Below the pieces are notes generated by a model that saw only the letters and a program-made list of their open reading frames with translations, made no database searches and was not told the DNA's origin. A stretch of DNA of 64,000 bases. It comes from Candidatus Nomurabacteria bacterium (GTDB lineage: Bacteria; Patescibacteriota; Minisyncoccia; Phycocordibacterales; UBA9973). The DNA lies in NCBI GenBank assembly GCA_052035195.1, contig JBPOHU010000001.1, positions 13,713 through 77,712 on the forward strand. The letters are read 5' to 3'. The position numbers and the translations under genes were made by a program. Shown here in pieces: positions 4,848 to 22,554 of the stretch (position 1 is the first letter of the stretch; each line of letters begins with the position of its first letter).

Positions 4848-4849
4848 AT

Positions 4850-5311
4850 ATGTATTCTTTCTCATTATTTTCTTCGCCTATAACCTTCCCGTTTTGTTTT
4901 GCGGTGCACACTTGGGTCGTTTTAGAATCTCCAGAGCTGGGTGTCAAAAGATACGAGATACACAAATTTTTTAATAATAAGACAGGTAATTATTTATACG
5001 TAAACGCTCAGGCCCCAAATGAAGGGATGTCTATTTTTATGATTCCAAAAAAGTTTTATTCAAAAAATAGGTTTAAATCAAGATGTATTTTTAAATTAAC
5101 AGGATTGCAAGCAAAAAATGTTATTGAAAATATAGAGAATAACATCAGTAAATATCCGTATTTAAATAAATATAGTTTATACCCTGGCCCTAACTCAAAC
5201 ACCTTTACTAGGTGGGTATTAGATTTGAACATTACTACTAAAGATTTAAACTTACCTTTTAACGCTTTCGGAAGGTTTTTTAATCGTTCTTTGGATATTG
5301 AGGCGTTATAA
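4850..5311 (+). CDS. Hypothetical protein (153 aa) wedged between uvrB and uvrA
   Basis: ORF starts 3 nt after the uvrB stop. No recognizable motif beyond a hydrophobic N-terminus. Confidence 0.4.
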   Translation: MYSFSLFSSPITFPFCFAVHTWVVLESPELGVKRYEIHKFFNNKTGNYLYVNAQAPNEGMSIFMIPKKFYSKNRFKSRCIFKLTGLQAKNVIENIENNISKYPYLNKYSLYPGPNSNTFTRWVLDLNITTKDLNLPFNAFGRFFNRSLDIEAL

Positions 5312-5351
5312 AAACAGTTTAATTTAGTAATACAAATCGTATACCAATTTT

Positions 5352-8006
5352 GTGGTACAATCGCTTATATTTATGAAGAAAGACGGGCAAAAAAATGAAT
5401 TAAAAGAAGGGCTTATTGTCGTAAAGGGAGCCCGGACACACAATCTCAAGAATGTGTCTGTTGAGATGCCTCGTGGCAAAATGATAGCTATTACAGGGCT
5501 CTCTGGTAGCGGTAAGAGTTCTCTTGCTTTTGATACTATTTTTGCAGAAGGACAGCGTCGTTATGTTGAAAGTCTCTCTTCTTACGCTCGACAATTTTTG
5601 AACCAAATGCCCAAGCCGGATGTAGATGAAATCAGTGGTCTTTCTCCTGCTATTTCTATTGACCAAAAGTCTCGCTCAAATAATCCTCGTTCAACAGTCG
5701 CAACCATCACTGAGATGTATGATTACATGCGTGTACTCTATGCTCGTGTAGGTAAGGCTCACTGTCCGGTCTGTGATACCTTGATTCAAAAACTTTCTAT
5801 TGAAGAGATAAATGGTTTTATTTTGCAAAAGATTAAAGACCTCTCTAAAAAACAAAAAGACAAAACTGTTATGGGTGTATCTTGGAATGATACTCGTATA
5901 CAGATATACGCACCTTTGGTACGAGGAAGAAAAGGAGAGTACTATCAACTTCTTTATGATTTAATAGGTAAAGGTTTTAGTACAGCTCGTATAGATGGCA
6001 AAATTCATAAACTTCGCGATAAGTTAGAAATAAAAAAGAACGATAAGCACACTATAGAAGTGTTGGTAGATGAATTAGCTGTACACGAATTTAAAGATAA
6101 TCCTAGAGATGCTGAGCTTCGTCTTTTTGAAGCTGTTGAGCGAGCACTTCTTGAAGCAGATGGATTGGTACAAGTTGTTTTTGGTGTGTCAGAAGATTTT
6201 GATCTTCAAACAGAACCGATACAAGAGTTTTTGATGTCTTCAAAGTTTTCTTGTCCTAATGATGGGTATTCATTTCCTGAGATTGAGCCTAGGCTTTTCT
6301 CTTTTAACTCTCCTTATGGAGCATGTCCAGAGTGTAACGGTTTGGGTAGTAAGTTTTTTGGAGGAACAGAGGTGTGCGATGTTTGTGGAGGAAAAAGACT
6401 TCGACCTGAAGCATTAAATGTCTTTTTGGGAGAAGATAAAAAAAGAATAAATATAGTAGACCTCACAACCCTCTCTGTTGAACAAGCTTTTGATTTTTTT
6501 GGATCACTTAAACTCTCTGCAAAAGATAGGGAAGTTGCTAATGCTGTTCTAAAAGAAATAGAAGATAGATTAGTTTTTCTCTTAAATGTTGGACTTGAAT
6601 ATTTAAGTTTAAATCGAACAGCCAATACTCTCTCTGGTGGTGAGGCTCAGCGTATCCGTCTTGCTTCACAGCTTGGCTCTCGATTGGTAGGGGCTATGTA
6701 CGTACTTGATGAACCAACTATTGGACTTCACCAAAGAGACAATGAACGTCTCATTAAGACCTTGGAAGAGTTAAGAGATGCAGGAAATACTATTATTGTC
6801 GTGGAGCATGATGAAGATACTATTTATGCATCGGACTACCTTGTTGATATTGGACCAGGTGCAGGAATACACGGAGGGCAAGTTATTGTTTCTGGTTATT
6901 TAGACAAACTTCTTTCAGCTAAGAAAAATGAAAGCGGATCTAGGACACTTGCTTATTTGCGCAAAGAAGAAGAAATAGAAACACCAGATAAGCGTCGTGA
7001 TACAGATAAGGGCACTATAAAAATAATTGGTGCAAACTTGCACAATATTCATAATCAAAATATAGATGTTCCACTTGGAAAAATGGTTGCTATAACAGGC
7101 GTATCTGGAAGTGGTAAAAGTACTTTCTTGTACGACATTTTGTACAAAAATCTTCAAGCGCGTTTTGAAAGAAAGCTTCGTAGTGCCAAAGTTTATAACT
7201 GTGCTTCATTTACTGGTACAGAATACTTGGCACGAGCTATTATGATTGATCAGTCTCCGATAGGAAGAACTCCACGAAGTAATATTGCCACCTATACTGG
7301 TGCATTTACTCATATCAGAGAAATATTTGCTCAGACAGAAGAAGCAAGACTTCGAGGTTGGAAGGTTAATAGATTCTCTTTCAATGTTAAAGGTGGGCGA
7401 TGTGAAGCTTGTGAGGGTAATGGTGAAATAGCTGTAGAAATGCACTTCTTGCCAACAGTTTACGTCACCTGTGATGTTTGTAATGGAAAGCGTTTTGATA
7501 AAGAAACATTAACTGTAAAATATAAACGTAAAAGCATTTATGACGTACTTCAGATGTCTGTAGAAGAAGGTCTTGAATTCTTTTATGAAATACCAGCTAT
7601 TTATGACAGACTCAAAACTCTAAGTGAAGTTGGTCTTGGTTATGTAAAGCTCGGTCAGAGCGCCACAACACTCTCTGGTGGAGAAGCTCAAAGAGTAAAG
7701 ATAGCTTCAGAGCTTTATCGTCCATATTTAGAAAAGACAATGTATCTACTAGATGAGCCTACTGTCGGACTGCACTATGATGATGTTAAAAATCTTATCG
7801 GAGTCCTAAATAGATTGGTTGCCAAGGGTAACACTGTTGTAGTTATTGAACACAATCTTGATCTTATAAAGTGCGCTGATCATCTTATAGATTTTGGACC
7901 ACAAGGAGGTGTTGCCGGAGGAAAAATAATTGCGAAAGGTACACCAGAAGAAGTCGCAAATAATAAGCATAGTTTTACAGGGGAATACCTTAAAAAGATA
8001 CTTTGA
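5352..8006 (+). CDS. uvrA: Excinuclease ABC subunit A
   Basis: Two ABC ATPase modules (GLSGSGKSSLAFDTI and GVSGSGKSTFLYDIL Walker A; LSGGEAQR signatures twice) and zinc-finger Cys clusters (CPVCDT, CPECNG, CEACEG, CDVCNG). The start could be the downstream ATG at about 5373. Confidence 0.95.
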   Translation: MVQSLIFMKKDGQKNELKEGLIVVKGARTHNLKNVSVEMPRGKMIAITGLSGSGKSSLAFDTIFAEGQRRYVESLSSYARQFLNQMPKPDVDEISGLSPAISIDQKSRSNNPRSTVATITEMYDYMRVLYARVGKAHCPVCDTLIQKLSIEEINGFILQKIKDLSKKQKDKTVMGVSWNDTRIQIYAPLVRGRKGEYYQLLYDLIGKGFSTARIDGKIHKLRDKLEIKKNDKHTIEVLVDELAVHEFKDNPRDAELRLFEAVERALLEADGLVQVVFGVSEDFDLQTEPIQEFLMSSKFSCPNDGYSFPEIEPRLFSFNSPYGACPECNGLGSKFFGGTEVCDVCGGKRLRPEALNVFLGEDKKRINIVDLTTLSVEQAFDFFGSLKLSAKDREVANAVLKEIEDRLVFLLNVGLEYLSLNRTANTLSGGEAQRIRLASQLGSRLVGAMYVLDEPTIGLHQRDNERLIKTLEELRDAGNTIIVVEHDEDTIYASDYLVDIGPGAGIHGGQVIVSGYLDKLLSAKKNESGSRTLAYLRKEEEIETPDKRRDTDKGTIKIIGANLHNIHNQNIDVPLGKMVAITGVSGSGKSTFLYDILYKNLQARFERKLRSAKVYNCASFTGTEYLARAIMIDQSPIGRTPRSNIATYTGAFTHIREIFAQTEEARLRGWKVNRFSFNVKGGRCEACEGNGEIAVEMHFLPTVYVTCDVCNGKRFDKETLTVKYKRKSIYDVLQMSVEEGLEFFYEIPAIYDRLKTLSEVGLGYVKLGQSATTLSGGEAQRVKIASELYRPYLEKTMYLLDEPTVGLHYDDVKNLIGVLNRLVAKGNTVVVIEHNLDLIKCADHLIDFGPQGGVAGGKIIAKGTPEEVANNKHSFTGEYLKKIL

Positions 8007-8076
8007 CAGTAACGCTCTATTGTTTCAAAGATAGATAATAATTGCTCATACGCCTTAGCTTGCATATAATCAAGGC

Positions 8077-11000
8077 ATGAAAAAAAAGAATATTTTGTTT
8101 GGTGCTTCATTAGCCGTTTTTATTAGTGTTTTAGGTTTTGTGTTTTTTGAGCCTGTTTCAGCTAGTTCAAAGACTTTTTTAGTAGATTTTGGACGTCAAG
8201 ATTTATCAACATCTGTTTCTGGTTGGAATAATATAACTAATCCTTCCCTAGGAACAAATTCTAATCTCGTTGATTCGACAGGTGCATCATCAAGTTTGAA
8301 TTTACAAATTTCAAATGCATTTGTAACCAATGCGAGTTATCCAACATATTCTGCAAATAACGGAGGTACAACAGCTAGTACTGTCTATCCAGCAAGTGCA
8401 ACTCGGGATTCCTTTTATCTTACTCCTTACGGAACAACAGCTGATACTGCTGGTCAGATAACTATAAGTGGTCTTAATAATGACGCTTCTTACACATTTA
8501 AATTTTTTGCATCTAGAGTAGATTCATCGACAGCCGCACGAACAGCTCAATATACTATAGGAACAAAATCTAGCACTCTTAATGCTACAAACAATGTAAA
8601 TTCTATTGCTCAAATTCAAGATGTAGTTCCAACAAATGGTTCTATTGTAATTAATGTTTCTATTTTGTCTGGTTCAAGTTATGCCTATTTAGGAGCTCTT
8701 GAGATTGTCGAAAATTCTTCAACAACCCCAACAAATATTAATCCAGTTGCAAATGCTGGTTTAGATCAGTCTATTTTACTTCCTATAAATTCAGTGACAT
8801 TTTCAGGCTCAGGTACAGATACAGATGGCTCTATAGTTGGGTATAGTTGGTCTCGAATTTCTGGAACAGGGGCTATCACATCACCTTCTTCTGCTTCAAC
8901 TACAATTACAGGACTTTTACAGGGAACATCGGTATTTCAGTTAACTGTTATTGATAATCAAGGTGCTCTTGGGACAGACACGGTTTCAGTAGTTGTAAAC
9001 CCTGGTACCCCTTCAAACGTTTCTCCTTCTGTTAATGCTGGTACAGATCAAACCATCACCCTCCCAATATCTTCAGTTACCCTCACAGGTTCTGCTACTG
9101 ACACCGACGGAACTATCTCTTCATACTCATGGACTAAAATTTCAGGTACTGGAGGAACTATCACATCACCATCTTCTGCTTCAACTACAATTATAGGACT
9201 ATCTGCAGGTTCATACACCTTCCGTCTTAGTGTTACTGATGATGATGGGGCTGTATCTTCTGATACTTTAGTGGTGGTTGTTAATCCTCAAACCGTAGGA
9301 GTTTGTCCTGTTCCACAAAAGATCGTTATTCTTGGCTCTTCAACCGCAGCAGGAAATGCAGCATCTTCATATCAAAATTCTTGGGCAGGAAGGTTGGCCA
9401 CATATGGTCAATCACAGAATCCAGGAGGGCAAATTATTAATCTTGGCATGTCTACATATACGACTTATCATATTTTAGCTACTGGATCATCTACTCCTTT
9501 AGATAGACCTACTCCTGATACAGCAAGAAACATTACCCGAGCACTTAGTTATTCTCCAGATGCAATTATTATTAATATGCCAACAAATGATGCTGCCAAC
9601 GGATACTCTCTTGCTGAACAACAGGCAAACTTTATTTCTTTGGCTCAAATTGCTGCTGATGCAGGTGTTGATTTATGGATAACAACAACACAGCCCCGTA
9701 ACTTAAACTCTTCACAAAGAGCTCAGCTTATAACAATGAGAGATTGGATTAACCAACAGTTCGGTTTAAAAGCAGTTGATTTTTGGACAACAGTTGCAAA
9801 TGCTGACGGCACAATAAATTCAACATATAATTCAGGTGACGGAATTCACCTAAATGATGCTGGTCATTTAGTACTATTTAATAGTTTGCTTTCTGAAAAT
9901 ATATACGATGTACTTTGTACTGCTAATTCAAATGTTTCTCCTTCTGCTAACGCTGGCACAGATCAATCTATTACTCTTCCGATAAGTTATCTTACCCTCA
10001 CAGGCTCAGGTACAGACTCAGACGGAACTATCTCTTCATACTCATGGACTAAGGTATCAACACTAGCAGGAACTATCACATCTCCATCTTCTGCTTCTAC
10101 TACTATCACTGGTTTAGCACAAGGTACTCATACCTTCCGTCTTACTGTTACAGACAATGGAGGATTAACTGCGAGTGATGATGTGGTGGTTGTGGTGAAT
10201 GCTGATCCGCTTCTTCAAAGTGCAACTACTATTGCTGGATATAATGCGATTGTTCACCTTCCAGGAGATTATGGACAAACTGGAACAAAACAGTATCCAT
10301 TAATATTATTCTTCCCGGGATTGTCTGAAGCTGGTACTGGAAATGTATACGACCTATTGTCTTATGGACCATCAGCTTTTATTGCAGCAGGTAACCCTAT
10401 GGAGTTTAATGTTAACGGTGTAGTAGAAAAGCCAATTGTTATATCGGTTCAAACCGGTCAATGGCCACAACCTTCTATTATAAATACTATTCTTTCAAAT
10501 ATCACATCTCAGTATAGGGTGGATAGTGCTCGGATTTATTTAACAGGTCTTTCAATGGGTGGATGGACAGTTGACACCTATGTAAGTGAAAATGAGACAT
10601 ATGCAAATAAAATTGCCGCAGTAGTAGCAGTTCAGCCAGCTGGTATGGATAATCCAGTTTCTCAAATGAGCACATTTGCTTCTGCTGGTGGTAAATGGTG
10701 GGGGATAAGAGGTATAAATGATGTATGGGGAACAGAAGTACCAACTATTGTCACAAATATGAACAGTCTATCTCCAGGGTCAGCCCGAGGTACTACTGTT
10801 GCTTCTGGTCAGCCTGGATCTACTCATTGTTGCTGGAATACATTTTATGACCCTGTTACATGGGCAACTAATAGCTCAAATAGTTACAGCGAAAGTATTT
10901 ATGAATGGATGCTTAAGCAATCAAAGAATTTTAATCAAGCACCTACTATTTCTTTTGATCCTATTACAATAAATCTGTCTGCAAATGTTGTTGACACCGA

Positions 11001-11178
11001 CGGAACTATCTCTTCATACTTATGGACAAAAGTATCAGGCACGGGAGGAACTATCACTTCACCATCTTCTGCTTCTACTACAATTACAGGACTATCTGCA
11101 GGTTCATACACCTTCCGTCTTAGTGTTACTGATGATGATGGGGCTGTAGTAAGTAAGGATTTTCAATTTTCTTTTTAA
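8077..11178 (+). CDS. Secreted multidomain protein: N-terminal beta-sandwich domain, four PKD-like repeats, SGNH/GDSL hydrolase domain and alpha/beta-hydrolase (esterase) domain
   Basis: Signal peptide MKKKNILFGASLAVFISVLGFVFF. Repeats of the form NAGTDQxITLPISSVTLTGSxTDTDGTISSYSWTKISGTGGTITSPSSASTTITGL..FRLSVTDDDG are PKD-like and occur four times. SGNH motifs (ILGSSTAAG near the N-terminus of the domain, DGIHLNDAGH at its end). Alpha/beta-hydrolase nucleophile elbow GLSMGG. Confidence 0.6.
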   Translation: MKKKNILFGASLAVFISVLGFVFFEPVSASSKTFLVDFGRQDLSTSVSGWNNITNPSLGTNSNLVDSTGASSSLNLQISNAFVTNASYPTYSANNGGTTASTVYPASATRDSFYLTPYGTTADTAGQITISGLNNDASYTFKFFASRVDSSTAARTAQYTIGTKSSTLNATNNVNSIAQIQDVVPTNGSIVINVSILSGSSYAYLGALEIVENSSTTPTNINPVANAGLDQSILLPINSVTFSGSGTDTDGSIVGYSWSRISGTGAITSPSSASTTITGLLQGTSVFQLTVIDNQGALGTDTVSVVVNPGTPSNVSPSVNAGTDQTITLPISSVTLTGSATDTDGTISSYSWTKISGTGGTITSPSSASTTIIGLSAGSYTFRLSVTDDDGAVSSDTLVVVVNPQTVGVCPVPQKIVILGSSTAAGNAASSYQNSWAGRLATYGQSQNPGGQIINLGMSTYTTYHILATGSSTPLDRPTPDTARNITRALSYSPDAIIINMPTNDAANGYSLAEQQANFISLAQIAADAGVDLWITTTQPRNLNSSQRAQLITMRDWINQQFGLKAVDFWTTVANADGTINSTYNSGDGIHLNDAGHLVLFNSLLSENIYDVLCTANSNVSPSANAGTDQSITLPISYLTLTGSGTDSDGTISSYSWTKVSTLAGTITSPSSASTTITGLAQGTHTFRLTVTDNGGLTASDDVVVVVNADPLLQSATTIAGYNAIVHLPGDYGQTGTKQYPLILFFPGLSEAGTGNVYDLLSYGPSAFIAAGNPMEFNVNGVVEKPIVISVQTGQWPQPSIINTILSNITSQYRVDSARIYLTGLSMGGWTVDTYVSENETYANKIAAVVAVQPAGMDNPVSQMSTFASAGGKWWGIRGINDVWGTEVPTIVTNMNSLSPGSARGTTVASGQPGSTHCCWNTFYDPVTWATNSSNSYSESIYEWMLKQSKNFNQAPTISFDPITINLSANVVDTDGTISSYLWTKVSGTGGTITSPSSASTTITGLSAGSYTFRLSVTDDDGAVVSKDFQFSF

Positions 11179-11190
11179 GGCATATTTTAG

Positions 11191-12045
11191 ATGATCAATA
11201 AAGACCTTTTAAAACGTGCGAAATTAATAACACGTCAGTATGGTCGTGGTTTTTATCGATCCTCTTTTTTATTCCCCAAGAAAGTAAGAGAGGCGACTTG
11301 GATTTTTTATGCTTTTGTTCGGTTGCCTGATGAAATGGTTGATACTGAGAAAGATAAAAACAAAGCCTTAGTTGAGCTTAACAAATGGTCTAATGATTGG
11401 AAGAGTGTAATCGATAATAATCCAAACAAAGAAGTAGATCCTTTAATCTTTGCTACTAAAGAGATTTTTGATTTTTATAATATTCCTTATGAATATGTAA
11501 GTAACTTTCTTTTTGCTATGTATCAGGACTTGAATAAAACAAGGTATAACTCTTATAAAGAACTAGAAGAATACATGTATGGCTCAGCTGCTGTTATAGG
11601 TCTCGTTATGAGTCATATTATAGGTTTTCGTGAAGGCGCATTGCCACACGCCAAGGCTCTGGGAGAAGCATTTCAGCTTATAAACTTTATAAGGGATGCA
11701 AAAGAGGATTATGATGTTCGTGGTAGAGTTTATTTACCCAAAGAAGATATGGATAAATTTGGTATTACAGAAGATTATATTAGAAAGAGTGTTTTAGATG
11801 ATTCAATGAAAAAGTTTTTGGCTTTTGAATTAGGTAGAGCCAAAGTTTTATTAGAAGAGGGGCAGAAAGGAATAAAAATGCTTGGTAATGGCAGAAGTGC
11901 TGTTTTTGCTTCTTACTTAATATATAAAAAACTAATAGAAAAAATTGAATTTGAGAATTATGATGTTTTTTCAAAAAGAATAGTTATTAGCCCATTACAA
12001 AAAACAATGTTACTCTTTAAAGCAGTATGGAACAAAAATCAGTAA
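11191..12045 (+). CDS. Squalene/phytoene synthase family enzyme (phytoene or 4,4'-diapophytoene synthase, CrtB/CrtM-like)
   Basis: Isoprenoid head-to-head synthase motifs: FYAFVRLPDEMVD (first Asp-rich region), YMYGSAAVIGLVM, and the second motif NFIRDAKEDYDVRGRVYLP. 284 aa, similar in size to CrtM. Confidence 0.75.
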   Translation: MINKDLLKRAKLITRQYGRGFYRSSFLFPKKVREATWIFYAFVRLPDEMVDTEKDKNKALVELNKWSNDWKSVIDNNPNKEVDPLIFATKEIFDFYNIPYEYVSNFLFAMYQDLNKTRYNSYKELEEYMYGSAAVIGLVMSHIIGFREGALPHAKALGEAFQLINFIRDAKEDYDVRGRVYLPKEDMDKFGITEDYIRKSVLDDSMKKFLAFELGRAKVLLEEGQKGIKMLGNGRSAVFASYLIYKKLIEKIEFENYDVFSKRIVISPLQKTMLLFKAVWNKNQ

Positions 12046-13535
12046 TCATAATAGGCGCAGGATTAGGAGGGCTTGCTCTCTCTGGCATGCTTGGCAAAAA
12101 GGGCTATAAAGTAACCCTGCTTGAAAAAAATGATTCTGTAGGTGGTAGAGCTAGGCTTTGGCAAAAAGATGGTTTTACTTTTGACCTTGGTCCTAGTTGG
12201 TACATGATGCCTGATGTTTTTGAGCACTTTTTTTCTTTAATGGGTGAAGATATAAATGATTATATTTCTTTACAAAAACTTGGTCCTTCATATCGAGTTT
12301 TTCTCAAAAGTAATGGTGCTGAATATGATTTTTATGGTGATATAGAAAAAAATAAACAAACTTTTGAATCAATAGAAAAAGGTTCAGGAGAAGTTTTAGA
12401 AAAGTTTTTAGCTTCAACAAAATATCAATACGAAATAGCAAAACAAGAATTCATGTTTAAAAACTATGATTCTATTTTTGATTTTATGAATAAGAGAATG
12501 ATGACTCTTGGTGCAAAGCTGCCTCTTTTTAAAAAACAAAAAAACATCATCGATAAACTTTTCAAAAGTGAACTCCTTAGAAAGGTTATGCAATATCAAA
12601 CTGTTCTTTTAGGGACATCTCCAGGAGAGACTCCTGGTATATATAGCATGATGAATTATGTGGATTTTGGCCTTGGTGTTTGGTATCCAAAAGGAGGTAT
12701 TATCGCTGTTCCAAATGCTTTGAAATCTATAACTAAAAAATACGGGGTCTCAATACGTACCAATGCAGACGTAGAGAAAATAATAGTAGAAGCTAACAAG
12801 GCTAAAGGAGTTAGACTCAAAGATGGTACAGAGCTTTATGCTGATATTGTAGTTTCTAATGCTGATATTGTTCATACAGATAAGACCCTTCTAGGAGGAG
12901 AGCATCAACAAAAGTCTACAAAGTATTGGGAAAAGAGATCCCTAGCACCGAGCGCTTTCATTCTTTATCTTGGTGTTAAGGGTAAAATCCCAAAAGCAGA
13001 ACATCATAACCTTATTTTTTCAAAATCTTGGGATGGCTACGCAAAAGAAGTTTTCAGTAGTAGTGGTGTTTGGCCGAATGATCCATCTCTATATGTTTGT
13101 GTGCCATCAAAAACAGATATAAGTGTTGCACCAAGTGGGGATGAAAATGTTTTTGTTCTTGTGCCTATTGCTCCAGGACTTGAATATACAGATGAATTTA
13201 TAAAACAATATAAAGAAAAAATTATTTCAGAATTGGCTACTTCTTTTAATGTTCCAGACTTGAAAGACAGAATAGTTGTAGAGAGGACTTATTGTGTTAA
13301 GGATTTTATAGCTGATTACAACGCTTTCAAGGGGACAGCATTAGGCTTGGCTCATACACTTGGTCAAACTGCTATCTTCAGGCCAAACAACGTACACAAG
13401 AAAATCAAAAATCTTTTTTATGTAGGGGCGGGGACAAATCCTGGTATTGGTATGCCGATCTGTCTTATCAGTGCAGAGCTAGCCTATAAGCGTATAGAAA
13501 ACATAACTCACCCATTTCCTTTAGAAAAGATATAA
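12027..13535 (+). CDS. Phytoene/diapophytoene desaturase (CrtI/CrtN family FAD-dependent oxidoreductase)
   Basis: N-terminal dinucleotide-binding fold VIIIGAGLGGLA..LEKNDSVGGRA. 502 aa. Overlaps the upstream synthase gene by 19 nt, suggesting translational coupling. Confidence 0.75.
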   Translation: MEQKSVIIIGAGLGGLALSGMLGKKGYKVTLLEKNDSVGGRARLWQKDGFTFDLGPSWYMMPDVFEHFFSLMGEDINDYISLQKLGPSYRVFLKSNGAEYDFYGDIEKNKQTFESIEKGSGEVLEKFLASTKYQYEIAKQEFMFKNYDSIFDFMNKRMMTLGAKLPLFKKQKNIIDKLFKSELLRKVMQYQTVLLGTSPGETPGIYSMMNYVDFGLGVWYPKGGIIAVPNALKSITKKYGVSIRTNADVEKIIVEANKAKGVRLKDGTELYADIVVSNADIVHTDKTLLGGEHQQKSTKYWEKRSLAPSAFILYLGVKGKIPKAEHHNLIFSKSWDGYAKEVFSSSGVWPNDPSLYVCVPSKTDISVAPSGDENVFVLVPIAPGLEYTDEFIKQYKEKIISELATSFNVPDLKDRIVVERTYCVKDFIADYNAFKGTALGLAHTLGQTAIFRPNNVHKKIKNLFYVGAGTNPGIGMPICLISAELAYKRIENITHPFPLEKI

Positions 13536-13545
13536 AAATAAAAAA

Positions 13546-13566
13546 CCTCCGCCTAGGAGGTTTTTT
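13546..13566. terminator. Bidirectional intrinsic terminator between convergent crtI/N-like and UbiA genes
   Basis: CCTCC-GCCTA-GGAGG hairpin flanked by an A-run (AAAAATAAAAAA) on the left and a T-run (TTTTTTATT) on the right. Confidence 0.55.
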
Positions 13567-13580
13567 ATTAATTAGGGTTT

Positions 13581-14432
13581 TTACCAAATATTTTTTGCAA
13601 ATAGCTCCATTGAAACGATTGCTCCAATTAGAGTATTAATCATAGGGAAGTAGGTATAGAGCTTGAATAGAGCTTCTTCTGTTTTCGCTCTCTGGCTACG
13701 CCACATAAAATAAGAGAAAACTATAGCCCCAACAAAACTTGCTATAGGGACTATATCTTTTACCAAATAACCAGCAAATACATATAAGAACCAACAAAGA
13801 GCTATAGTTCTCTGTTTTCCAATCATGATAGCGATAGTGTGTAGTCCTGCTTCAAAGTCTGCTTTGATATCTGGGACTGCACTATAGGCATGCATTGCAA
13901 CAGCCCAAAGTAGTCCAGCTATTATTCCAACAGCAGGGAAGCTTTCTCCTCCTGCTAGATAGTATCCAAAGACCCCCGTAGCAGTGTAGTGACCAGCAGA
14001 AAACAAGGAATCAATGATAGGTTTAGCTTTGGCTCGTATTGGTTCTGCAGAATAAAAAGAAGCAAAAAATACAAAAGCTAAAAATGAAAGTATTATTGGT
14101 GCAGAAAGTGGAACAAAGAAAAAGAATGGAACATTTGTAAAAATTATCCATTTCCATAGAGATCGTTGTCTTTCTGGTGGAACTAGTGCCTCATAGGCAT
14201 TGTCACCCTTTTTAGGATTTAGTTTATCCGTTTCGTAATCAAAAATATCATTGATACCGTATATCAAGATATTAGCTGGTATTAAAAAGTAGAGTGCAAA
14301 TACCCAATACCGCCAATCTGAAAAAAAGCTTAATCCCTGTAATGCTCCTACGGTTCCCACAAGTCCAAAAGTCGCTGCTTCATATAACCAAAAACGAGGT
14401 CTAGATATTTTAAGTACTTCTTTTATAGTCAT
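13581..14432 (-). CDS. UbiA-family aromatic/isoprenoid prenyltransferase (integral membrane)
   Basis: NDIFDYETD matches the UbiA NDxxDxxxD motif. Multiple TM helices. Start taken at the internal ATG (MTIKEVLKISRPRFW) rather than the ORF-track start at 14591. Confidence 0.65.
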   Translation of the reverse strand: MTIKEVLKISRPRFWLYEAATFGLVGTVGALQGLSFFSDWRYWVFALYFLIPANILIYGINDIFDYETDKLNPKKGDNAYEALVPPERQRSLWKWIIFTNVPFFFFVPLSAPIILSFLAFVFFASFYSAEPIRAKAKPIIDSLFSAGHYTATGVFGYYLAGGESFPAVGIIAGLLWAVAMHAYSAVPDIKADFEAGLHTIAIMIGKQRTIALCWFLYVFAGYLVKDIVPIASFVGAIVFSYFMWRSQRAKTEEALFKLYTYFPMINTLIGAIVSMELFAKNIW

Positions 14433-14490
14433 ATTGCAATAGTAGCATAAACAAAATAAAAACCCTCCCAAAAATTTTGAGAGAGTGAGG

Positions 14491-14709
14491 TTAGTCTTTT
14501 TGGTCTGGCAGTTCAAATTTAATGTACGTTGCCCATATAAACCATCCAATAAGTGTAAATAAAAAAGAATAGAGCACGGACCACAATACACTTATCTTAA
14601 ACACAAAATATAGTATAAACAGAGTAAAGAGTAGTGATCCTAAGGTTATTAATCCCATATGAAACATCAGATGGAAACCAGAGTGTAAATATTTTTTAAA
14701 CTTTTTCAT
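14491..14709 (-). CDS. Small two-TM membrane protein (72 aa), hypothetical
   Basis: ORF lies directly upstream of the UbiA gene on the same strand. Two hydrophobic helices. Assumes the UbiA start at 14432. Confidence 0.3.
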   Translation of the reverse strand: MKKFKKYLHSGFHLMFHMGLITLGSLLFTLFILYFVFKISVLWSVLYSFLFTLIGWFIWATYIKFELPDQKD

Positions 14710-14742
14710 TATACAAATTTTATGTTATAATACACTAACTTT

Positions 14743-15987
14743 ATGATTCGTCAAGATTTCGACAAGTTAAAATTCCCAGAAACACCAGGGGTATATGCCT
14801 GGCGTGATGCAGAAGGCAAAATCCTATATATAGGCAAGGCTACATCACTTCGCGATCGTGTGAGAAGTTATTTTTCTCCTGATGTTATTAAGACTCGTGG
14901 TCCACATATTGTAGATATGGTATTTAAGTCTCACACAGTTACATACCAAGAAACAATGAATGCTCTCGAAGCCCTTATCCTTGAAGCCAACTTAATTAAA
15001 AAATATAAACCTTATTACAATACCAAGGAAAAAGATGATAAGAGCTTTAATTGTGTTGCTATAACAAAAGAAGACTTCCCAAAAGTTATTTTAGTTAGGC
15101 AAAAAGATATAGATATAAAAAATAAAACAGTTAGAGCTCTAAGACACCCTAAGCCTATGTCGTACGATGTTATTTTTGGTCCCTATCCAAAAGGTTCAGC
15201 TATCAAAGAAGCCTTAAAAATCCTTAGACCAATTTTCCCTTTTAGAGATTTAGCTTCTTCAAAGAAAGACAATACTGTTTTTTATAGACAAATAGGACTT
15301 TCTCCAGATGTCATAAATAAAGATGCACAAATAGAATACAAAAAAACAATAAAAAGATTAAAAATGGTTTTTCAAGGGAAGTTTCAGTCTCTTTTAAAAG
15401 AACTCAAAAAAGAAATGTTATCTTTAGCTAATAAACAAAAATTTGAATTAGCAAATGTTTTGAAACAAAAAGTCTTTGCCCTAGAACATATTCAAGATAT
15501 TTCTTTGATAAAAAGAGATTTAGAAAGCACTGTCATAGGAGAAGAATTTCGTATAGAAGCGTATGATGTAGCGCATATTAGCGGAGCGTCTATGGTTGGT
15601 GTTATGACAGTGGTTACAAATTCAAGTTCTGATAAGTCTGCATATCGCAAATTTATTATCAAAGGTTTTGATAAGGCCAATGACGCTGGAGCTTTGAGAG
15701 AAATACTCACACGACGTTTTGGTCATCCAGAATGGGGAACGCCAAATGCTATTGTGGTAGACGGTAACCTTATACAGGTAAATGTAGCCAAAGAAGCTCT
15801 AAAAAATCTATCTTTGGATATACCAATAATTGCCGTTACAAAGGACGAACGTCATAGACCCAAGGCTATTAGCGGACCAAAGGAGATAGTTGAGAAAAAT
15901 AAATACGCAATACTTTTGGCAAATAACGAAGCTCATCGTTACGCTATAACTTTCCACAAAACTCGACGTAAAAAATCATTCGTGTAA
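14743..15987 (+). CDS. uvrC: UvrC-like excinuclease, shortened (GIY-YIG domain plus RNase-H-like endonuclease domain; no UvrBC-interaction or HhH region apparent)
   Basis: GIY-YIG N-terminus (PGVYAWRDAEGKILYIGKATSLRDRVRSYF..EALILEANLIKKYKPYYN) and the UvrC C-half signature EAYDVAHISGASMVGVMTVV..DKSAYRKF. Only 414 aa, against about 600 for a canonical UvrC. Confidence 0.7.
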   Translation: MIRQDFDKLKFPETPGVYAWRDAEGKILYIGKATSLRDRVRSYFSPDVIKTRGPHIVDMVFKSHTVTYQETMNALEALILEANLIKKYKPYYNTKEKDDKSFNCVAITKEDFPKVILVRQKDIDIKNKTVRALRHPKPMSYDVIFGPYPKGSAIKEALKILRPIFPFRDLASSKKDNTVFYRQIGLSPDVINKDAQIEYKKTIKRLKMVFQGKFQSLLKELKKEMLSLANKQKFELANVLKQKVFALEHIQDISLIKRDLESTVIGEEFRIEAYDVAHISGASMVGVMTVVTNSSSDKSAYRKFIIKGFDKANDAGALREILTRRFGHPEWGTPNAIVVDGNLIQVNVAKEALKNLSLDIPIIAVTKDERHRPKAISGPKEIVEKNKYAILLANNEAHRYAITFHKTRRKKSFV

Positions 15988-16770: not shown

Positions 16771-18639
16771 ATGATACATCCTAGTGATGGAGAACGAGTA
16801 ACTTATTTCGGCGAAACAAACTTTCGCAACCAACAAACGCGTTTTGGTATAAAAAACCGCGATCGTACTCGTCATATGTATGTGGTAGGAAAGTCTGGGG
16901 TAGGAAAGTCTACACTACTTGAAAATATGGCTATTCAAGACATTCAAAACGGAGAAGGGGTGGCCGTTCTAGATCCGCACGGTAGTTTTGCTGAGAAAAT
17001 GCTTGATTATATTCCTGAAGACCGTATTAAGGATGTGGTTTATTTTGCTCCTTTTGATATAGAAAATCCTATTTCTTTTAATATGCTTGAAGATATCGGA
17101 GAAGACAAGCGTCACTTTGTAGCTTCAGGATTGATGAGTACCTTCAAAAAGATTTGGGTAGACGCATGGAGTGCTCGTATGGAGTATATTCTTAACAATA
17201 TCTTGCTCGCTCTTTTAGAGTACCCAGATGCTACTTTGTTAGGAGTAAACCGAATGCTCTCGGATAAAGCTTTTAGAAAAAAAGTTGTTGAAAATATCAA
17301 AGACCCTTCAGTAAAAGCTTTTTGGACAGATGAATTTGAAAAGTACGGTGAGCGTTATATGCAAGAAGCTGGAGCAGCTATTCAAAATAAAATCGGTCAG
17401 TTTACTGCTAACCCTCTAGTTCGCAATATTATTGGTCAGCCTAAGTCTAGTTTTGATGTACGAGATATTATGGACAATAAGAAAATTCTTATTGTTAACC
17501 TTTCAAAAGGTCGTATTGGTGAACAAAATACAAGTCTCTTAGGTAGTATGATTATTACAAAGATTTATATTGCTGCTATGAGTCGCGCTGATGTTTCTCA
17601 TACTCGTATGGCAGAGCTTCCAAGTTTTTATTTTTATGTTGACGAATTCCAGTCTTTTGCCAACGAGTCCTTTGCTAATATTTTATCTGAGGCTCGTAAA
17701 TATAAACTCGCGCTTATCATTGCGCACCAATATATTGCTCAAATGGAGGAGTCAGTGCGCGATGCTGTTTTTGGAAACGTAGGAACAAGTGTATCTTTTA
17801 GAGTTGGACCACTGGACTCGGAGATGTTAGAGAAGGTATATGCACCACAGTTTACGTCAAACGATCTTGTAAATCTTGGTTTTGCGCAGATATATTTATC
17901 TTTGATGATTAACGATATGGGTTCTCAGCCTTTTTCTGCAAAAACCTTAGCTCCTATACCAAGACCATCTATTTCTTATAGAAATGATGTTATTGAGTGG
18001 ACCAGAGCTCACTTTGCTTTACCTAAAGACATAGTAGAGAAAAATATTAGAGATTGGTTTGGTGCTGGTAGCGAAGAATCTGGACAAAATAATTCCTATG
18101 AAAAGAAGCCGTATTTACAGAATCAAAAATCTTTTAGTCCAGAACAAAAGCCTTATCAAAAACCAACTACCTCTTTCCCAAAAAAGGAATACAAACCAGA
18201 GCAGAAGTTTACTAGTAGTGAGCCAAAAGTTCACATGCCTTTCAAAAAGGTTTTTGAAAAACCAATAGTTAAAGAAGAAACAAACAATATAAAACCAAGC
18301 GAAGAACTGTCGAAGCTTTTAGATGCTATTGATAATAGTCCCACAAAGACTAATGAAGCTCCTGTTGTACAAAAGGTTCCGAGGCCTCCATTTGTTGATG
18401 AAAAGCCTTTAACTCAAACTATAGCACCTGTTAAGCTCGCAGAAAGAGGTCCTACAGAATCTAGTCGCAACCTTCTCAAAGAAGCCTTAATGAAAGCTAC
18501 ATCAGGAACAAATATAAAAAATGAAGAAATAAAAACTCAAAAGACAGAAGATCCTATTTTAGAAAAAAAAGAAGATACTTCTGTAAACAATAATCCAAAA
18601 GAAATATCTCACAGCGAATTAAAAAAGATTTTAGAATAA
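16771..18639 (+). CDS. TraD/TrwB/VirD4-family (type IV coupling protein-like) P-loop ATPase with long Lys/Glu/Pro-rich C-terminal tail
   Basis: Walker A VVGKSGVGKSTLL followed by VLDPHG (matches the DPxG motif after the P-loop in T4CPs). Walker B FYFYVDEFQSF. IIAHQY motif. No N-terminal TM helices. About 190 aa of low-complexity C-terminus. Confidence 0.5.
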   Translation: MIHPSDGERVTYFGETNFRNQQTRFGIKNRDRTRHMYVVGKSGVGKSTLLENMAIQDIQNGEGVAVLDPHGSFAEKMLDYIPEDRIKDVVYFAPFDIENPISFNMLEDIGEDKRHFVASGLMSTFKKIWVDAWSARMEYILNNILLALLEYPDATLLGVNRMLSDKAFRKKVVENIKDPSVKAFWTDEFEKYGERYMQEAGAAIQNKIGQFTANPLVRNIIGQPKSSFDVRDIMDNKKILIVNLSKGRIGEQNTSLLGSMIITKIYIAAMSRADVSHTRMAELPSFYFYVDEFQSFANESFANILSEARKYKLALIIAHQYIAQMEESVRDAVFGNVGTSVSFRVGPLDSEMLEKVYAPQFTSNDLVNLGFAQIYLSLMINDMGSQPFSAKTLAPIPRPSISYRNDVIEWTRAHFALPKDIVEKNIRDWFGAGSEESGQNNSYEKKPYLQNQKSFSPEQKPYQKPTTSFPKKEYKPEQKFTSSEPKVHMPFKKVFEKPIVKEETNNIKPSEELSKLLDAIDNSPTKTNEAPVVQKVPRPPFVDEKPLTQTIAPVKLAERGPTESSRNLLKEALMKATSGTNIKNEEIKTQKTEDPILEKKEDTSVNNNPKEISHSELKKILE

Positions 18640-18653
18640 TTTTTTAAACCATC

Positions 18654-19997
18654 ATGTTTCGTGCCATAGCGCTATCTATCGCTATAGTTCTTGTTTCAGT
18701 AAGCATTTCTTACGCTAGTGTTCGTATCACTGAAATAGCATGGATGGGTAATACAGAGACTTCTTTTGGTGAATGGTTTGAGCTTTATAATGAGGGAGAT
18801 GAGAGTGTAGATCTTTCAGGTTGGAAGCTTTATGAAGATGGGGGAGAGCAAGTTGTTTTTACTCTTACAAAGAGTATTGACCCAAAAGGGTATTTAGTTG
18901 TTGAAAGAACAACCTCTACCAGTACAGATCCTGTTCCAGGTATAAGTGATGAATCAGGTACTTTTGGTGGCAGTGGATTTTCAAATACTGGTGAAAATTT
19001 AATTCTCAAAGATAAAGATGGTGTTTCTGTGCAGTCTTTAAATTTTATTTCTGGTTGGCCAGCAGGAAGTAGTGAGACCAAAGAAACAATGCAGTGGGAT
19101 GGAGCGTCTTGGGTAACAGCTAAATCTACACCAAAAGCCGGGCTTACTACTGATGTTGTTACTCCTGAACAGGTTGTAGCTTCGGGTGGTTCTGAATGGA
19201 TTCCTAAAAAAATAGAGCCAAGAATAGAGCTCTATATACCAAAGATAATTTATACAAAAGTAGCTTCAGAATATAATGCTGTAACTTTCTTAGATTATGA
19301 CAAAGCTTATTCAGGTGTTTTTCTTTGGAATATGGGTGATGGTACTACATACAGAAATACTTACCCTACAGAAATAAAACATACTTATAAATATCCTGGC
19401 ACTTATACTATCTCTTTTGCTTATTATAAAAATCCTTATGATAAAAAACCTTTTCTTTTAAACTTTTCTGAGCGTACAGTAGTAGAGCCTGTTGTTTCTC
19501 TAAGGATTATCAGTGATAAGGGGTTTGAATTTACAAATAGTAGTTCAAATACAGTTGATATCTCCGGATGGTTTGTTTTGCTCGAAGGAGTTTCAAATCC
19601 AAAAGATTCAATATTGGAAATCCCACCTATTACTTTTATTGCTCCTAATAAATCTATTATTATGCCATTTAGTTCTTTTGGATTATCAGAAGTTCCTAGT
19701 GGTGCCACCCTTCAAACTCCTGAGCGAAATAGTGTTACCGAAGAAACATCTTCTGTGGTAAAAAATCAAAATATTGTTGCCCCAAAGCAAAAAGTTATAG
19801 AAAATCAGTATCAAGATGAAATTGTTACAAAAAATAATTTTACAGCTAGCGTCACAACAGAAGGATTAGAAAATAAAGAAATTAGTGATAACCAAAAACA
19901 AAACAACACCAAGATTTTTATTTTTGGTGCTGTTTTACTAGGTGTTATTATTTTATTTTTGTTTGTAAATAGGTTTATTGTGTCGCGGGAAGAGTAG
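18654..19997 (+). CDS. Membrane-anchored protein with two lamin-tail-domain (LTD)-like modules
   Basis: Signal peptide. VRITEIAWMGN..GEWFELYNEGDESVDLSGWKL matches the LTD signature. A second, weaker copy (TNSSSNTVDISGWFVLLEG). C-terminal TM anchor IFIFGAVLLGVIILFLF. Confidence 0.6.
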   Translation: MFRAIALSIAIVLVSVSISYASVRITEIAWMGNTETSFGEWFELYNEGDESVDLSGWKLYEDGGEQVVFTLTKSIDPKGYLVVERTTSTSTDPVPGISDESGTFGGSGFSNTGENLILKDKDGVSVQSLNFISGWPAGSSETKETMQWDGASWVTAKSTPKAGLTTDVVTPEQVVASGGSEWIPKKIEPRIELYIPKIIYTKVASEYNAVTFLDYDKAYSGVFLWNMGDGTTYRNTYPTEIKHTYKYPGTYTISFAYYKNPYDKKPFLLNFSERTVVEPVVSLRIISDKGFEFTNSSSNTVDISGWFVLLEGVSNPKDSILEIPPITFIAPNKSIIMPFSSFGLSEVPSGATLQTPERNSVTEETSSVVKNQNIVAPKQKVIENQYQDEIVTKNNFTASVTTEGLENKEISDNQKQNNTKIFIFGAVLLGVIILFLFVNRFIVSREE

Positions 19998-20742
19998 TAG
20001 GTGGTACCTCAGGAGTAGTTTCAGTTGTATCTTCTACTGTGATATCTGTTTCTGTTACTAAATTTAAATCAGAGGTTAGTTGTTCTATTTCTTTAGATAT
20101 AATCTTATTTTCTTCAGCAGAAACCTTCTCTATAGTAGCATCGACTGCTTTTAATGCGTCACTTTGATCTTCTGTACTACCATCAACTATGTACTTCTGG
20201 ATATCTTCTTTTTGATTTTTAAGACTTTGTTCAAGTGTAGCAGTTACTTTTAGGGCCTCACTCGGCTCTGCGTCAGATAGAGTACCAAGCTCTTTAGAAA
20301 AATCTTTTATATGAGTATCTAGAGCTCTTTGAGCAGTCTCTTGTTTTGCTTTAGTAAGAGTTTTTGAAGCCGCCAAAGTCTTTATTTCACTTAATCGATT
20401 ATCAATACGAGTACTTTGCCATGAGAGTTTTTCTTCAGGAGTTGTTAAGAAGGCACCTTTAACTTCTTCGTTAACATTTATTTTGAAAGAGTATAGAGGG
20501 TCTCCCGGAAGAGAATTATCAGCTACAACAGAAACACTTCCTCCAACAAAGACAACAAATAGGAAAGTAGATAGACCTATTCTTAAGCCATGTTGTATCC
20601 CTCTGTGGAATATTGAAACAACAGGAGTTGATCGAGATATTTGAATATTTCTAGCAATAGAAGCACGAAGAATAGCACGCTCATCATTAGAGAGGTGTAT
20701 GTCTTTAAACATCTTTAATTGTTCGATTTTTTTCTCAATCAT
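19975..20742 (-). CDS. Putative anti-sigma factor / membrane protein with periplasmic coiled-coil domain
   Basis: Overlaps the stop of the upstream ECF sigma gene by 8 nt. Single TM helix (LSTFLFVVFVGGSVSVV), then a helical ectodomain. Confidence 0.4.
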   Translation of the reverse strand: MIEKKIEQLKMFKDIHLSNDERAILRASIARNIQISRSTPVVSIFHRGIQHGLRIGLSTFLFVVFVGGSVSVVADNSLPGDPLYSFKINVNEEVKGAFLTTPEEKLSWQSTRIDNRLSEIKTLAASKTLTKAKQETAQRALDTHIKDFSKELGTLSDAEPSEALKVTATLEQSLKNQKEDIQKYIVDGSTEDQSDALKAVDATIEKVSAEENKIISKEIEQLTSDLNLVTETDITVEDTTETTPEVPPTTLPATQ

Positions 20743-21253
20743 AAATTGTTTCGTTATAGCGACCTTTAAGTTTTTGGATAATTCTATGAATACGAACAGT
20801 CATAGCATTGACGCTTTTGCCGTATAAGCTCGCAATTTCTTCGATAGGTTTTTCTTCTGTGTATCTAAGGAAAATAATTTGCTTACTTTCTTCATCTAGC
20901 TCTTCGAGTAGCCCTTGAACCATTTTGATATCATCATTTCTGAATATTTCATCAGTATGAGTATTTGTTTCTGGGTCAAAACCATTTTCAAGTAGGGAGT
21001 CTAGAGAGGAACTTTTGCTCTTTTTGTAATAATCAATAACAGCATTTTTTGCTATTCGATAGACGAATGCTTGTTCGTGTAGCACCTCTCCTCCTTTGGC
21101 TAAATAGCCCCAAAGCCTTACAAAAGTGTCTTGGGTGATATCTAGGGCAATATGGCGAGAGCCAACACGAAAGAAAACAAAGCGAAATATCGCATCTTGA
21201 TATTCTTCAAATAGCTTGGAAAATAAGGCTTGTTGTTCGTTTTCGCGATTCAT
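20735..21253 (-). CDS. ECF-type RNA polymerase sigma-70 factor
   Basis: Region 2 (QDTFVRLWGYLAKG..AFVYRIAKNAVIDYY) and region 4 HTH (EIASLYGKSVNAMTVRIHRIIQKLK). Start taken at the internal ATG (MNRENEQ). Confidence 0.75.
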   Translation of the reverse strand: MNRENEQQALFSKLFEEYQDAIFRFVFFRVGSRHIALDITQDTFVRLWGYLAKGGEVLHEQAFVYRIAKNAVIDYYKKSKSSSLDSLLENGFDPETNTHTDEIFRNDDIKMVQGLLEELDEESKQIIFLRYTEEKPIEEIASLYGKSVNAMTVRIHRIIQKLKGRYNETIYD

Positions 21254-21346
21254 AGAACGATTCAATCTTAGTGACGAAGTAAAGCCACAGATATTACATA
21301 TTATACACAACATTTTGTTTTAAAGCATATTTGCTATAATAGCCCA

Positions 21347-22549: not shown

Positions 22550-22554
22550 ATAAA

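Follow-up and report, generated by a model that had tools for sequence, protein, structure and literature searches.

Bacterioruberin-type carotenoids are red pigments of the C50 rather than the staphylococcal C30 type, and are otherwise known from haloarchaea and some Actinobacteria. The characterised system closest to the genes considered here is the haloarchaeal crtI/crtD-lyeJ-cruF cluster, for instance c0507-c0506-c0505 of Haloarcula japonica, in which pathway roles have been assigned to CrtI/CrtD, LyeJ and CruF (PMC11946383). Furthermore, lyeJ, crtD and cruF have been found in Candidatus Patescibacteria from Lake Baikal, where a membrane role was proposed (Haro-Moreno and co-workers, 2023; PMC9948471). 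Here we describe a crtB-crtI pair and a convergent UbiA-family prenyltransferase gene in a 64-kb stretch of a Candidatus Nomurabacteria bacterium genome (contig JBPOHU010000001.1; the whole stretch analysed is called the window). Together they probably encode a minimal bacterioruberin-type carotenoid pathway made up of CrtB, CrtI/D and LyeJ, with no CruF in the window. Both the type of pathway and its occurrence in Patescibacteria have been published before, so that the gain is incremental. What is added is that the module is widespread in Paceibacteria, that loci of the candidate phyla radiation (CPR) usually lack CruF, that the genes of one lineage are embedded between uvrA and uvrC, and that the C30 reading suggested by a first-pass annotation of the window is not supported. 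A literature search on carotenoids and phytoene in Parcubacteria returned no match, and carotenoids were not mentioned in the CPR oxidative-stress literature that was examined.

NCBIfam, Pfam, tblastn and PDB searches, neighbour-joining (NJ) trees and comparisons of gene order show which genes are present, the families in which they fall, their synteny and conservation, and the purifying selection on them, and from these we infer substrates, product, co-transcription and physiological role. The four open reading frames (ORFs) first reported for the locus are all present at their coordinates, as are the NDIFDYETD motif of the UbiA protein and the 19-nt overlap (12027-12045) between the synthase and desaturase genes. 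On the forward strand, the gene for a crtB-like phytoene (C40) synthase (11191-12045; 284 aa; Pfam SQS_PSY, 197.8 bits) runs into that for a crtI-family desaturase (12027-13535; 502 aa; Pfam Amino_oxidase/NAD_binding_8). On the reverse strand, a LyeJ-type UbiA prenyltransferase, predicted to be a lycopene elongase/1,2-hydratase, is encoded at 13581-14432 (283 aa from an ATG at 14432; Pfam UbiA, 70.5 bits). The UbiA ORF was first reported as 336 aa from a GTG start (13581-14591) and is probably over-extended in that form; the ATG at 14432 (MTIKEV...) is the likely true start because homologues are 281-289 aa long and alignments begin there, and the UbiA gene therefore does not overlap the small hydrophobic ORF upstream (14491-14709, reverse strand; 72 aa; no Pfam assignment). 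The annotation of the cluster as carotenoid-type holds up.

A bidirectional intrinsic terminator common to crtI and the UbiA gene separates their stops (at 13535 and 13581, respectively). It spans 13537-13569 (AATAAAAAACCTCC-GCCTA-GGAGGTTTTTTATT, 14 paired bases) and is a perfect 14-bp palindrome bordered by an A-run and, at the opposite end, a T-run. The first-pass annotation had the 72-aa ORF share this terminator as well, which holds for crtI and the UbiA gene but not for that ORF, which lies upstream of the UbiA gene on the same strand and has its own terminator-like hairpin (14486-14462, reverse strand; 11-bp stem, then a T-run; predicted energy -14.3 kcal/mol, z-score -2.0). The latter directly follows the 72-aa ORF and ends about 30 nt ahead of the UbiA ATG. 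In coarse 2-kb bins, the GC profile gave no sign of recent transfer, with values of 0.36-0.37 over the cluster, the same as in the flanks.

Like the haloarchaeal clusters compared (Halarchaeum pCBA1220-01, L003, and a Halocatena salina plasmid, L005), the locus combines a CrtB, a single desaturase scoring best on the CrtID model and a UbiA enzyme that passes NCBIfam model NF009516, and its synthase and desaturase genes overlap. It differs in that the window has no cruF, its UbiA gene faces crtI instead of running in the same direction, the proteins are only 33-41% identical and the desaturase scores below the CrtID cut-off. Moreover, the haloarchaeal clusters lie near bop-regulator or transport genes, whereas the cluster in the window lies within uvrA...uvrC in a CPR host. 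The Baikal Patescibacteria genes (PMC9948471), compared by description, share with the window the superphylum and the proposed pathway. The Baikal set is complete with cruF and dispersed, whereas the window has a tight crtB-crtI/UbiA module that is linked to uvr genes and has no CruF.

The Phe26 position and the nearest relatives of the synthase suggest a CrtB-like enzyme of the C40 type, with predicted use of geranylgeranyl diphosphate (GGPP). The Asp-rich motifs DEMVD and RDAKEDYDVRGRVYLP are present in its translation. At the position of CrtM Phe26 it carries Ser; this position is Phe in both C30 references (Staphylococcus xylosus CrtM and an Enterococcus faecium CrtM-like enzyme) and Ser, Thr or Ala in all C40 CrtB references. 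Mutating F26 of CrtM to Ala, Ser or Leu leads to acceptance of GGPP (PMC13304436). In the NJ trees (200 bootstraps), the synthase falls outside the two CrtM references with 99% support, and it is 21-24% identical to CrtM. By tblastn it is 33-34% identical over the full length to CrtB of the Halarchaeum and Halocatena bacterioruberin clusters, and a PDB search returned distant references only (5iys, 4hd1 and CrtM chains).

For the desaturase, the top model is NCBIfam NF058655, named 'bifunctional phytoene desaturase/3,4-desaturase CrtID' (600.6 bits), and this activity matches that shown genetically for Haloarcula japonica C0507 and D1086 (PMC11946383). As calibration, two crtI products of haloarchaeal bacterioruberin clusters scored 750-754 bits on the same model and that of an Arthrobacter cyclic-C50 cluster 453 bits. 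The desaturase has an N-terminal GAGLGG dinucleotide-binding motif, passes TIGR02734 crtI_fam (495 bits; cut-off 238) and scores 205-271 bits on CrtD models. Over its full length it is 41% identical to the Halarchaeum/Halocatena cluster CrtI (tblastn), and its relatives in the PDB are all similarly remote (248 bits for Nonlabens CrtD, 234 bits for Pantoea CrtI; entries 4rep and 4dgk). Its NJ clade holds all CPR, Acidobacteriota and Armatimonadota sequences, the haloarchaeal CrtID and the Arthrobacter CrtI (86% support; core 72.5%). CrtN and CrtP stand outside this clade as its nearest neighbours, and the wider clade that adds them has 100% support.

The UbiA enzyme passes NF009516 (222.2 bits; cut-off 205), on which the Halarchaeum/Halocatena enzymes encoded between crtI and cruF, in the LyeJ position, scored 397-426 bits and the Arthrobacter CrtEb-type enzyme 134 bits. 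On the CrtEb-type model NF009608 (cut-off 217) it reached 154 bits, compared with 469 bits for the Arthrobacter enzyme. Models for MenA, UbiA and digeranylgeranylglyceryl phosphate (DGGGP) synthase gave 18-41 bits against cut-offs of 264-353; lycopene elongase was one of the clades that the first-pass annotation had listed for checking. The Asp-rich motifs NDIFDYETD and PDIKAD are kept in every aligned sequence, from the CrtEb type through CPR. A tblastn search of 72,556 plasmids returned six matches (five haloarchaeal and one from Arthrobacter), and the three plasmid loci inspected are all C50 carotenoid clusters. In addition, two close homologues (75% and 68% identical) are labelled by the Joint Genome Institute (JGI) as 'lycopene elongase/hydratase (dihydrobisanhydrobacterioruberin-forming)'.

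Taken together, these placements would give a short route to a C50 product. CrtB would condense two GGPP to phytoene, which the CrtI-family desaturase would convert to lycopene. The LyeJ-type enzyme would then add a C5 unit from dimethylallyl diphosphate (DMAPP) to C-2 and hydrate the 1,2 bond, after which the same desaturase, like the haloarchaeal bifunctional CrtI/CrtD, would add the 3,4 double bond. Repetition of elongation/hydration and 3,4-desaturation at the other end of the molecule would yield bisanhydrobacterioruberin, whose absorption lies at about 467/490/521 nm (PMC11946383). Going on to bacterioruberin would need CruF, a C50 carotenoid 2'',3''-hydratase. Seven tblastn queries with CruF (haloarchaeal, CPR, Abditibacteriaceae and acidobacterial) found no match in the 64-kb window, and there was no PF04240 match among the scanned window ORFs. 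Because no CruF is present in the window, the end product is likely to be a bisanhydrobacterioruberin-like C50 carotenoid, or a C45 intermediate, and not bacterioruberin. The pigment may also serve as a membrane-stiffening lipid.

Other carotenoid functions were also absent from the window. Pfam and tblastn searches found none of crtY, crtZ, crtX, photolyase and CarH, and there was no homologue of CrtYe/CrtYf, crtP, crtQ, crtO or LdrP, nor of a second desaturase, a glycosyltransferase or an acyltransferase in the window. GGPP and DMAPP have to be supplied by genes that lie beyond the window, and Pfam and tblastn confirm the statement of the first-pass annotation that a farnesyl diphosphate (FPP) or GGPP supply is not visible within it. 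An unlinked DMAPP consumer is encoded at 39948-40784 on the reverse strand, namely miaA (tRNA dimethylallyltransferase; Pfam IPPT, 217.6 bits), which is indirect evidence for cellular DMAPP, the predicted C5 donor of the elongase.

Species genomes of GTDB were scanned with the UbiA protein, which gave 80 related loci (some counts below are over 81). A crtI homologue adjoins the UbiA gene, usually convergently, in 72 of the 80 (with crtB present too in 69), which ties the UbiA enzyme to the carotenoid genes as had been proposed. Loci with adjacent crtI and UbiA genes span Paceibacteria and related CPR, Acidobacteriota and Armatimonadota, and the common order is [crtE]-crtB-crtI facing a convergent UbiA gene. 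In 40/81 loci, the gene directly upstream of crtB encodes a short-chain polyprenyl diphosphate synthase, whose chain length is not fixed by any NCBIfam equivalog. The nearest homologues of the desaturase are 62-87% identical and those of the UbiA enzyme up to 99%, in metagenome-assembled genomes (MAGs) of Candidatus Paceibacterota, Parcubacteria, Pacebacteria and Taylorbacteria; similarly, UvrA is 84-92% identical to the closest Paceibacterota MAGs. The ratio of nonsynonymous to synonymous substitution rates (dN/dS) was 0.04-0.26 for crtB, crtI and the UbiA gene (0.09-0.26 for the synthase and 0.04-0.06 for UbiA), similar to uvrA and uvrC and indicating purifying selection, with dS saturated (>= 1.5 or not computable), so that the ratios indicate strong constraint and are not precise values.

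An extra multi-transmembrane ORF of 135-161 aa, on the same strand as the UbiA gene and separating this gene from crtI, is present in several CPR relatives but not in the window. Examples are found in L009 (10904-11380), L010 (11973-12380), L011 (10929-11336), L013 (11262-11720), L015 (8128-8538), L018 (10908-11357), L034 (6153-6608) and L036 (4284-4769). These ORFs had no Pfam match and could be a pathway accessory. A further locus, L029 (DATGWK010000035.1), is titled 'Candidatus Nanoarchaeia archaeon' and has a crtE-crtB-crtI/UbiA arrangement in which UbiA and CrtI are 65-70% identical to those of Paceibacteria. Misbinning or mislabelling is the likelier cause, and a transfer into a DPANN archaeon the less likely one.

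Beyond CPR, the nearest relatives are found in uncharacterised clusters of Acidobacteriota (Pyrinomonadaceae and relatives), Abditibacteriaceae and Armatimonas (L046, L053, L057-L085). The window shares their convergent arrangement and is 41-48% (UbiA), 52-53% (CrtI) and 36-40% (CrtB) identical to them. Unlike in the window, CruF is divergent from UbiA in nearly all loci of Acidobacteriota, Abditibacteriaceae and Armatimonas (L069 being the exception), and there is no uvr linkage. The Acidobacteriota CruF is fused to a type-1 isopentenyl diphosphate (IPP) isomerase (PF04240 plus NUDIX; NF002995, 211-220 bits, cut-off 127), for example in L058 (8460-9815, reverse strand) and L063 (8662-9966, reverse strand), which would put DMAPP supply beside the elongase. 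Such a fusion next to a UbiA orthologue fits a DMAPP-dependent elongase. With the actinobacterial cyclic-C50 cluster on an Arthrobacter plasmid (L004; crtE-crtB-crtI-crtYe-crtYf-crtEb, which we take to be of the decaprenoxanthin type), the window has in common a UbiA-family elongase following CrtB and CrtI and the motifs NDxFDYxxD and PDIxxD. It differs from that cluster in the NF009608 score of its UbiA enzyme, well under the cut-off, and in having no CrtYe/CrtYf.

Several results weigh against the proposed C50 pathway or weaken parts of it. The desaturase lies under the curated CrtID cut-off (600.6 < 640), and its bifunctionality is suggested by its clade and by its being the sole desaturase present. 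The UbiA enzyme is just 33-36% identical over the full length to the haloarchaeal enzymes in the LyeJ position, and a PDB search with it found no relative at E <= 0.01. For the synthase, the best CrtB model of NCBIfam gave 163 bits, HpnD 153 and HpnC 148, none at its cut-off, while its order within the CrtB/Hpn group of the NJ tree has 20-52% support and the trees were built on a small, opportunistic reference set. Pfam and tblastn found no crtE, idi/fni or IPP/DMAPP pathway genes in the 64 kb, and the window, like its nearest relatives L002, L008, L014 and L017, has no crtE adjacent to crtB. Co-transcription with uvrA is suggested solely by spacing and by the absence of terminators. The reading is built on homology rather than on CPR pigment chemistry, and the main uncertainties concern chain length, end product, precursor supply and whether the uvr linkage reflects co-regulation.

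The first-pass annotation had taken the sizes of the two proteins and their gene overlap as a mirror of the staphylococcal crtM-crtN pair. Under such a C30 pathway, a CrtM-like enzyme would turn two FPP into dehydrosqualene, a CrtN-like enzyme would form diaponeurosporene or diapolycopene, and the UbiA enzyme would do something else. The staphyloxanthin operon crtO-P-Q-M-N on an S. xylosus plasmid (L086) does resemble the locus in gene sizes and in its overlapping synthase/desaturase pair, and the desaturase is slightly closer to S. xylosus CrtN (33-34%) than to Pantoea CrtI (29-31%), with CrtN/CrtP as the sister group of its clade. FPP should exist for undecaprenyl phosphate synthesis, and a GGPP synthase gene is found neither in the window nor beside crtB in the closest relatives. 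The overlap itself is no staphylococcal mark, being 4 nt between crtM and crtN of S. xylosus and 10 nt between crtB and crtI of Halarchaeum. Against the C30 pathway, Ser replaces the chain-length-limiting Phe26 that both C30 references keep, the synthase is excluded from CrtM (99%) and CrtN/CrtP from the desaturase clade (86%), crtP, crtQ and crtO are missing from the window, an elongase of the LyeJ type is a consistent partner and crtE stands beside crtB in 40/81 relatives. The Phe26 position, the trees, the absent crtP/Q/O and the partner genes were the grounds on which the crtM/crtN reading was rejected, and it is very improbable. Less credible still is a pathway of the HpnC/HpnD type leading to squalene or triterpenoid lipids instead of a pigment. 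Its HpnD and HpnC scores come near that of the best CrtB model and the NJ tree does not robustly separate Hpn from CrtB, so that the tree placement proposed in the first-pass annotation set both enzymes apart from CrtM and CrtN/CrtP but left this division blurred. However, the scores are all under the Hpn cut-offs (HpnD 278.6, HpnC 250.45), and their ambiguity carries no information because genuine haloarchaeal CrtB enzymes show the same mixed pattern (HpnD 182-193 bits); the HpnC/HpnD reading was set aside on this account. Moreover, the synthase is 23-24% identical to HpnC/HpnD compared with 33-40% to CrtB from elongase clusters, it is the only one of its kind in the window, and its partner is a CrtI-family desaturase passing TIGR02734. 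HpnE is absent from the window, where its sole match was a 61-residue stretch at the flavin adenine dinucleotide (FAD) motif of crtI, and no cyclase family turned up in the Pfam scans of the window.

The UbiA enzyme and CruF raise two other alternatives. If lycopene or 3,4-didehydrolycopene were the final product, the UbiA enzyme would be an unrelated quinone, lipid or cofactor prenyltransferase that is merely adjacent. That its gene is on the opposite strand as its own transcription unit, exceeds the NF009516 cut-off by just 17 bits and lies 7 kb from genes for an NDH-2-like protein and a UbiE-like methyltransferase would suit such a C40 pathway. It is nevertheless improbable, given the adjacency to crtI in 72/80 loci across CPR, Acidobacteriota and Armatimonadota and in haloarchaea also, the low scores on the MenA, UbiA and DGGGP-synthase models, the C50 clusters around the inspected plasmid homologues and the CruF-isomerase fusion beside the Acidobacteriota orthologue. 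Alternatively, the pathway may be complete and yield bacterioruberin, the last hydration being carried out by a CruF, or by a hydratase not homologous to it, whose gene lies in another part of the genome. CruF could be located as in one Baikal Patescibacteria genome, where cruF is far from lyeJ and crtD (PMC9948471), and this too counts as a point against a pathway ending short of bacterioruberin. Two CPR loci (L061 and L066) have cruF beside the UbiA gene, and the uncharacterised membrane ORF between UbiA and crtI in several relatives could be added on the same side. On the other hand, no CruF is found in the 64 kb, nor within 10 kb in about 50 CPR loci save those two, the only CPR loci in which cruF adjoins the UbiA gene. 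In addition, CPR-type CruF is rare, with 32 matches at E <= 1e-10 in a collection of 5.8 billion proteins as against 2047 for the UbiA enzyme at a looser E <= 1e-3. A complete pathway is thus unlikely, and the minimal CrtB, CrtI/D and LyeJ pathway is preferred.

The genes of this minimal pathway lie among those of nucleotide excision repair. The window order is uvrB, DUF3750, uvrA, a PKD/GDSL gene, crtB, crtI, the convergent UbiA gene, the 72-aa ORF and uvrC. On the forward strand are uvrB (2772-4847; Pfam UvrB_inter, UvrB, Helicase_C, UVR), uvrA upstream of and co-directional with crtB (5352-8006; Pfam UvrA_inter, ABC_tran), and uvrC, divergent from the UbiA side (14743-15987; Pfam GIY-YIG, UvrC_RNaseH_dom). 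Between uvrA and crtB, a secreted PKD/GDSL protein of 1033 aa (8077-11178, forward strand; Pfam K319L-like_PKD x4, Lipase_GDSL_2) takes the place where many relatives have crtE, and the stop of its gene is 12 nt before the crtB start. The protein has a long C-terminal region without a Pfam match. No terminator-like site was found on the forward strand between 2500 and 13536. In seven relatives (L002, L010, L011, L013, L017, L018 and L022), uvrA is followed by crtE-crtB-crtI or crtB-crtI with a gap of 0-27 nt or a short overlap, and in 13 relatives the UbiA gene has uvrC on its other side, often accompanied by an endonuclease III gene. The 19-nt overlap of crtB and crtI recurs in each of the 15 uvr-linked relatives possessing the two genes.

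In bacteria, uvrB, uvrA and uvrC are usually dispersed; at 2772-15987 of the window all three lie within 13 kb, with the carotenoid genes between uvrA and uvrC. In relatives, a HhH-GPD (endonuclease III-like) gene is seen between the UbiA gene and uvrC. The combined uvr and crt region looks like a damage-protection and repair neighbourhood. Since crtB-crtI are placed downstream of uvrB-uvrA in the same orientation, no terminator-like site intervenes and uvrC stands past the UbiA gene, synthesis of the pigment probably goes along with nucleotide excision repair and protects the cell from light and oxidative damage. A precedent for crt-uvr linkage is given by the Thermus thermophilus pTF25b megaplasmid (L090, 160-3241), where the photolyase gene phr comes immediately after crtB, and carH and ldrP are in divergent orientation to crtB, so that there too a carotenoid synthase gene is coupled to a gene for the repair of ultraviolet (UV) damage. 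It differs from the window in that the repair partner there is photolyase rather than UvrABC, and in having CarH and LdrP. A wider proposal, which we hold tentatively and consider somewhat doubtful, is 'sunscreen plus repair': the carotenoid genes would have been absorbed into the excision repair operon of one Paceibacteria lineage, uvrA-[crtE]-crtB-crtI with lyeJ, endonuclease III and uvrC would form a single co-regulated module, and the CruF-less C50 lipid could also act as a self-made membrane rivet in ultra-small, lipid-scavenging cells.

Should this hold, the life of these CPR bacteria would involve exposure to light and oxygen, and they would govern a property of their membrane by themselves. 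CPR bacteria, or Patescibacteria, are seen as biosynthetically minimal and mostly unable to make their own lipids. A conserved module under purifying selection, probably of the C50 bacterioruberin type, indicates that many Paceibacteria retain an autonomous isoprenoid pigment pathway. The placement within uvrA...uvrC suggests a light- or oxidative-stress lifestyle, and the regulatory hypothesis is testable in metatranscriptomes. Furthermore, the three genes offer a small set of candidates for making bisanhydrobacterioruberin-type C50 carotenoids in a non-halophilic background; the haloarchaeal enzymes did not work in E. coli (PMC11946383).

The 72-aa ORF was counted as a member of the cluster in the first-pass annotation, a claim that does not hold up. 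It has no Pfam or NCBIfam match and no homologue in the 81 related loci, and 1.84 billion representative proteins gave a single weak match (58 aa, E 4.7e-7). L006, L014 and L017 have an unrelated ORF of 56-65 aa at this position. It was also considered as a part of the pathway such as a small cyclase or hydratase subunit, and this was rejected on the lack of a family and of a homologue in the loci and on the empty CrtYe/CrtYf queries. With a promoter-like site and its own terminator-like hairpin, it is probably an orphan outside the system, and may not be a gene.

The remaining gene content of the window is typical of CPR, with MreB/C, Tgt, a VirD4-like coupling protein, TatC, ParB, RelA/SpoT and Topo I, and it includes large PKD and lamin-tail-domain (LTD) proteins. 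At 16771-21313, a VirD4/TrwB-like type IV coupling protein (622 aa) precedes one with lamin-tail and PKD domains, and a divergent extracytoplasmic function (ECF) sigma factor with a DUF5667 partner lies just past the latter. At 21347-23307, an NDH-2-like flavoprotein (Pyr_redox_2; 400 aa) precedes a UbiE/COQ5-like methyltransferase; the two look quinone-related, which is unexpected for a CPR genome without a visible quinone pathway. Large ORFs (959, 302, 571 and 459 aa) at 24417-27296, 31806-34410 and 38219-39598 had no Pfam match at E <= 1e-4. Finally, the reverse strand at 61474-62277 encodes a ComA-family (2R)-phospho-3-sulfolactate synthase (193.7 bits), an enzyme that is usually tied to coenzyme M or sulfolipid-related chemistry and is unusual for Paceibacteria.

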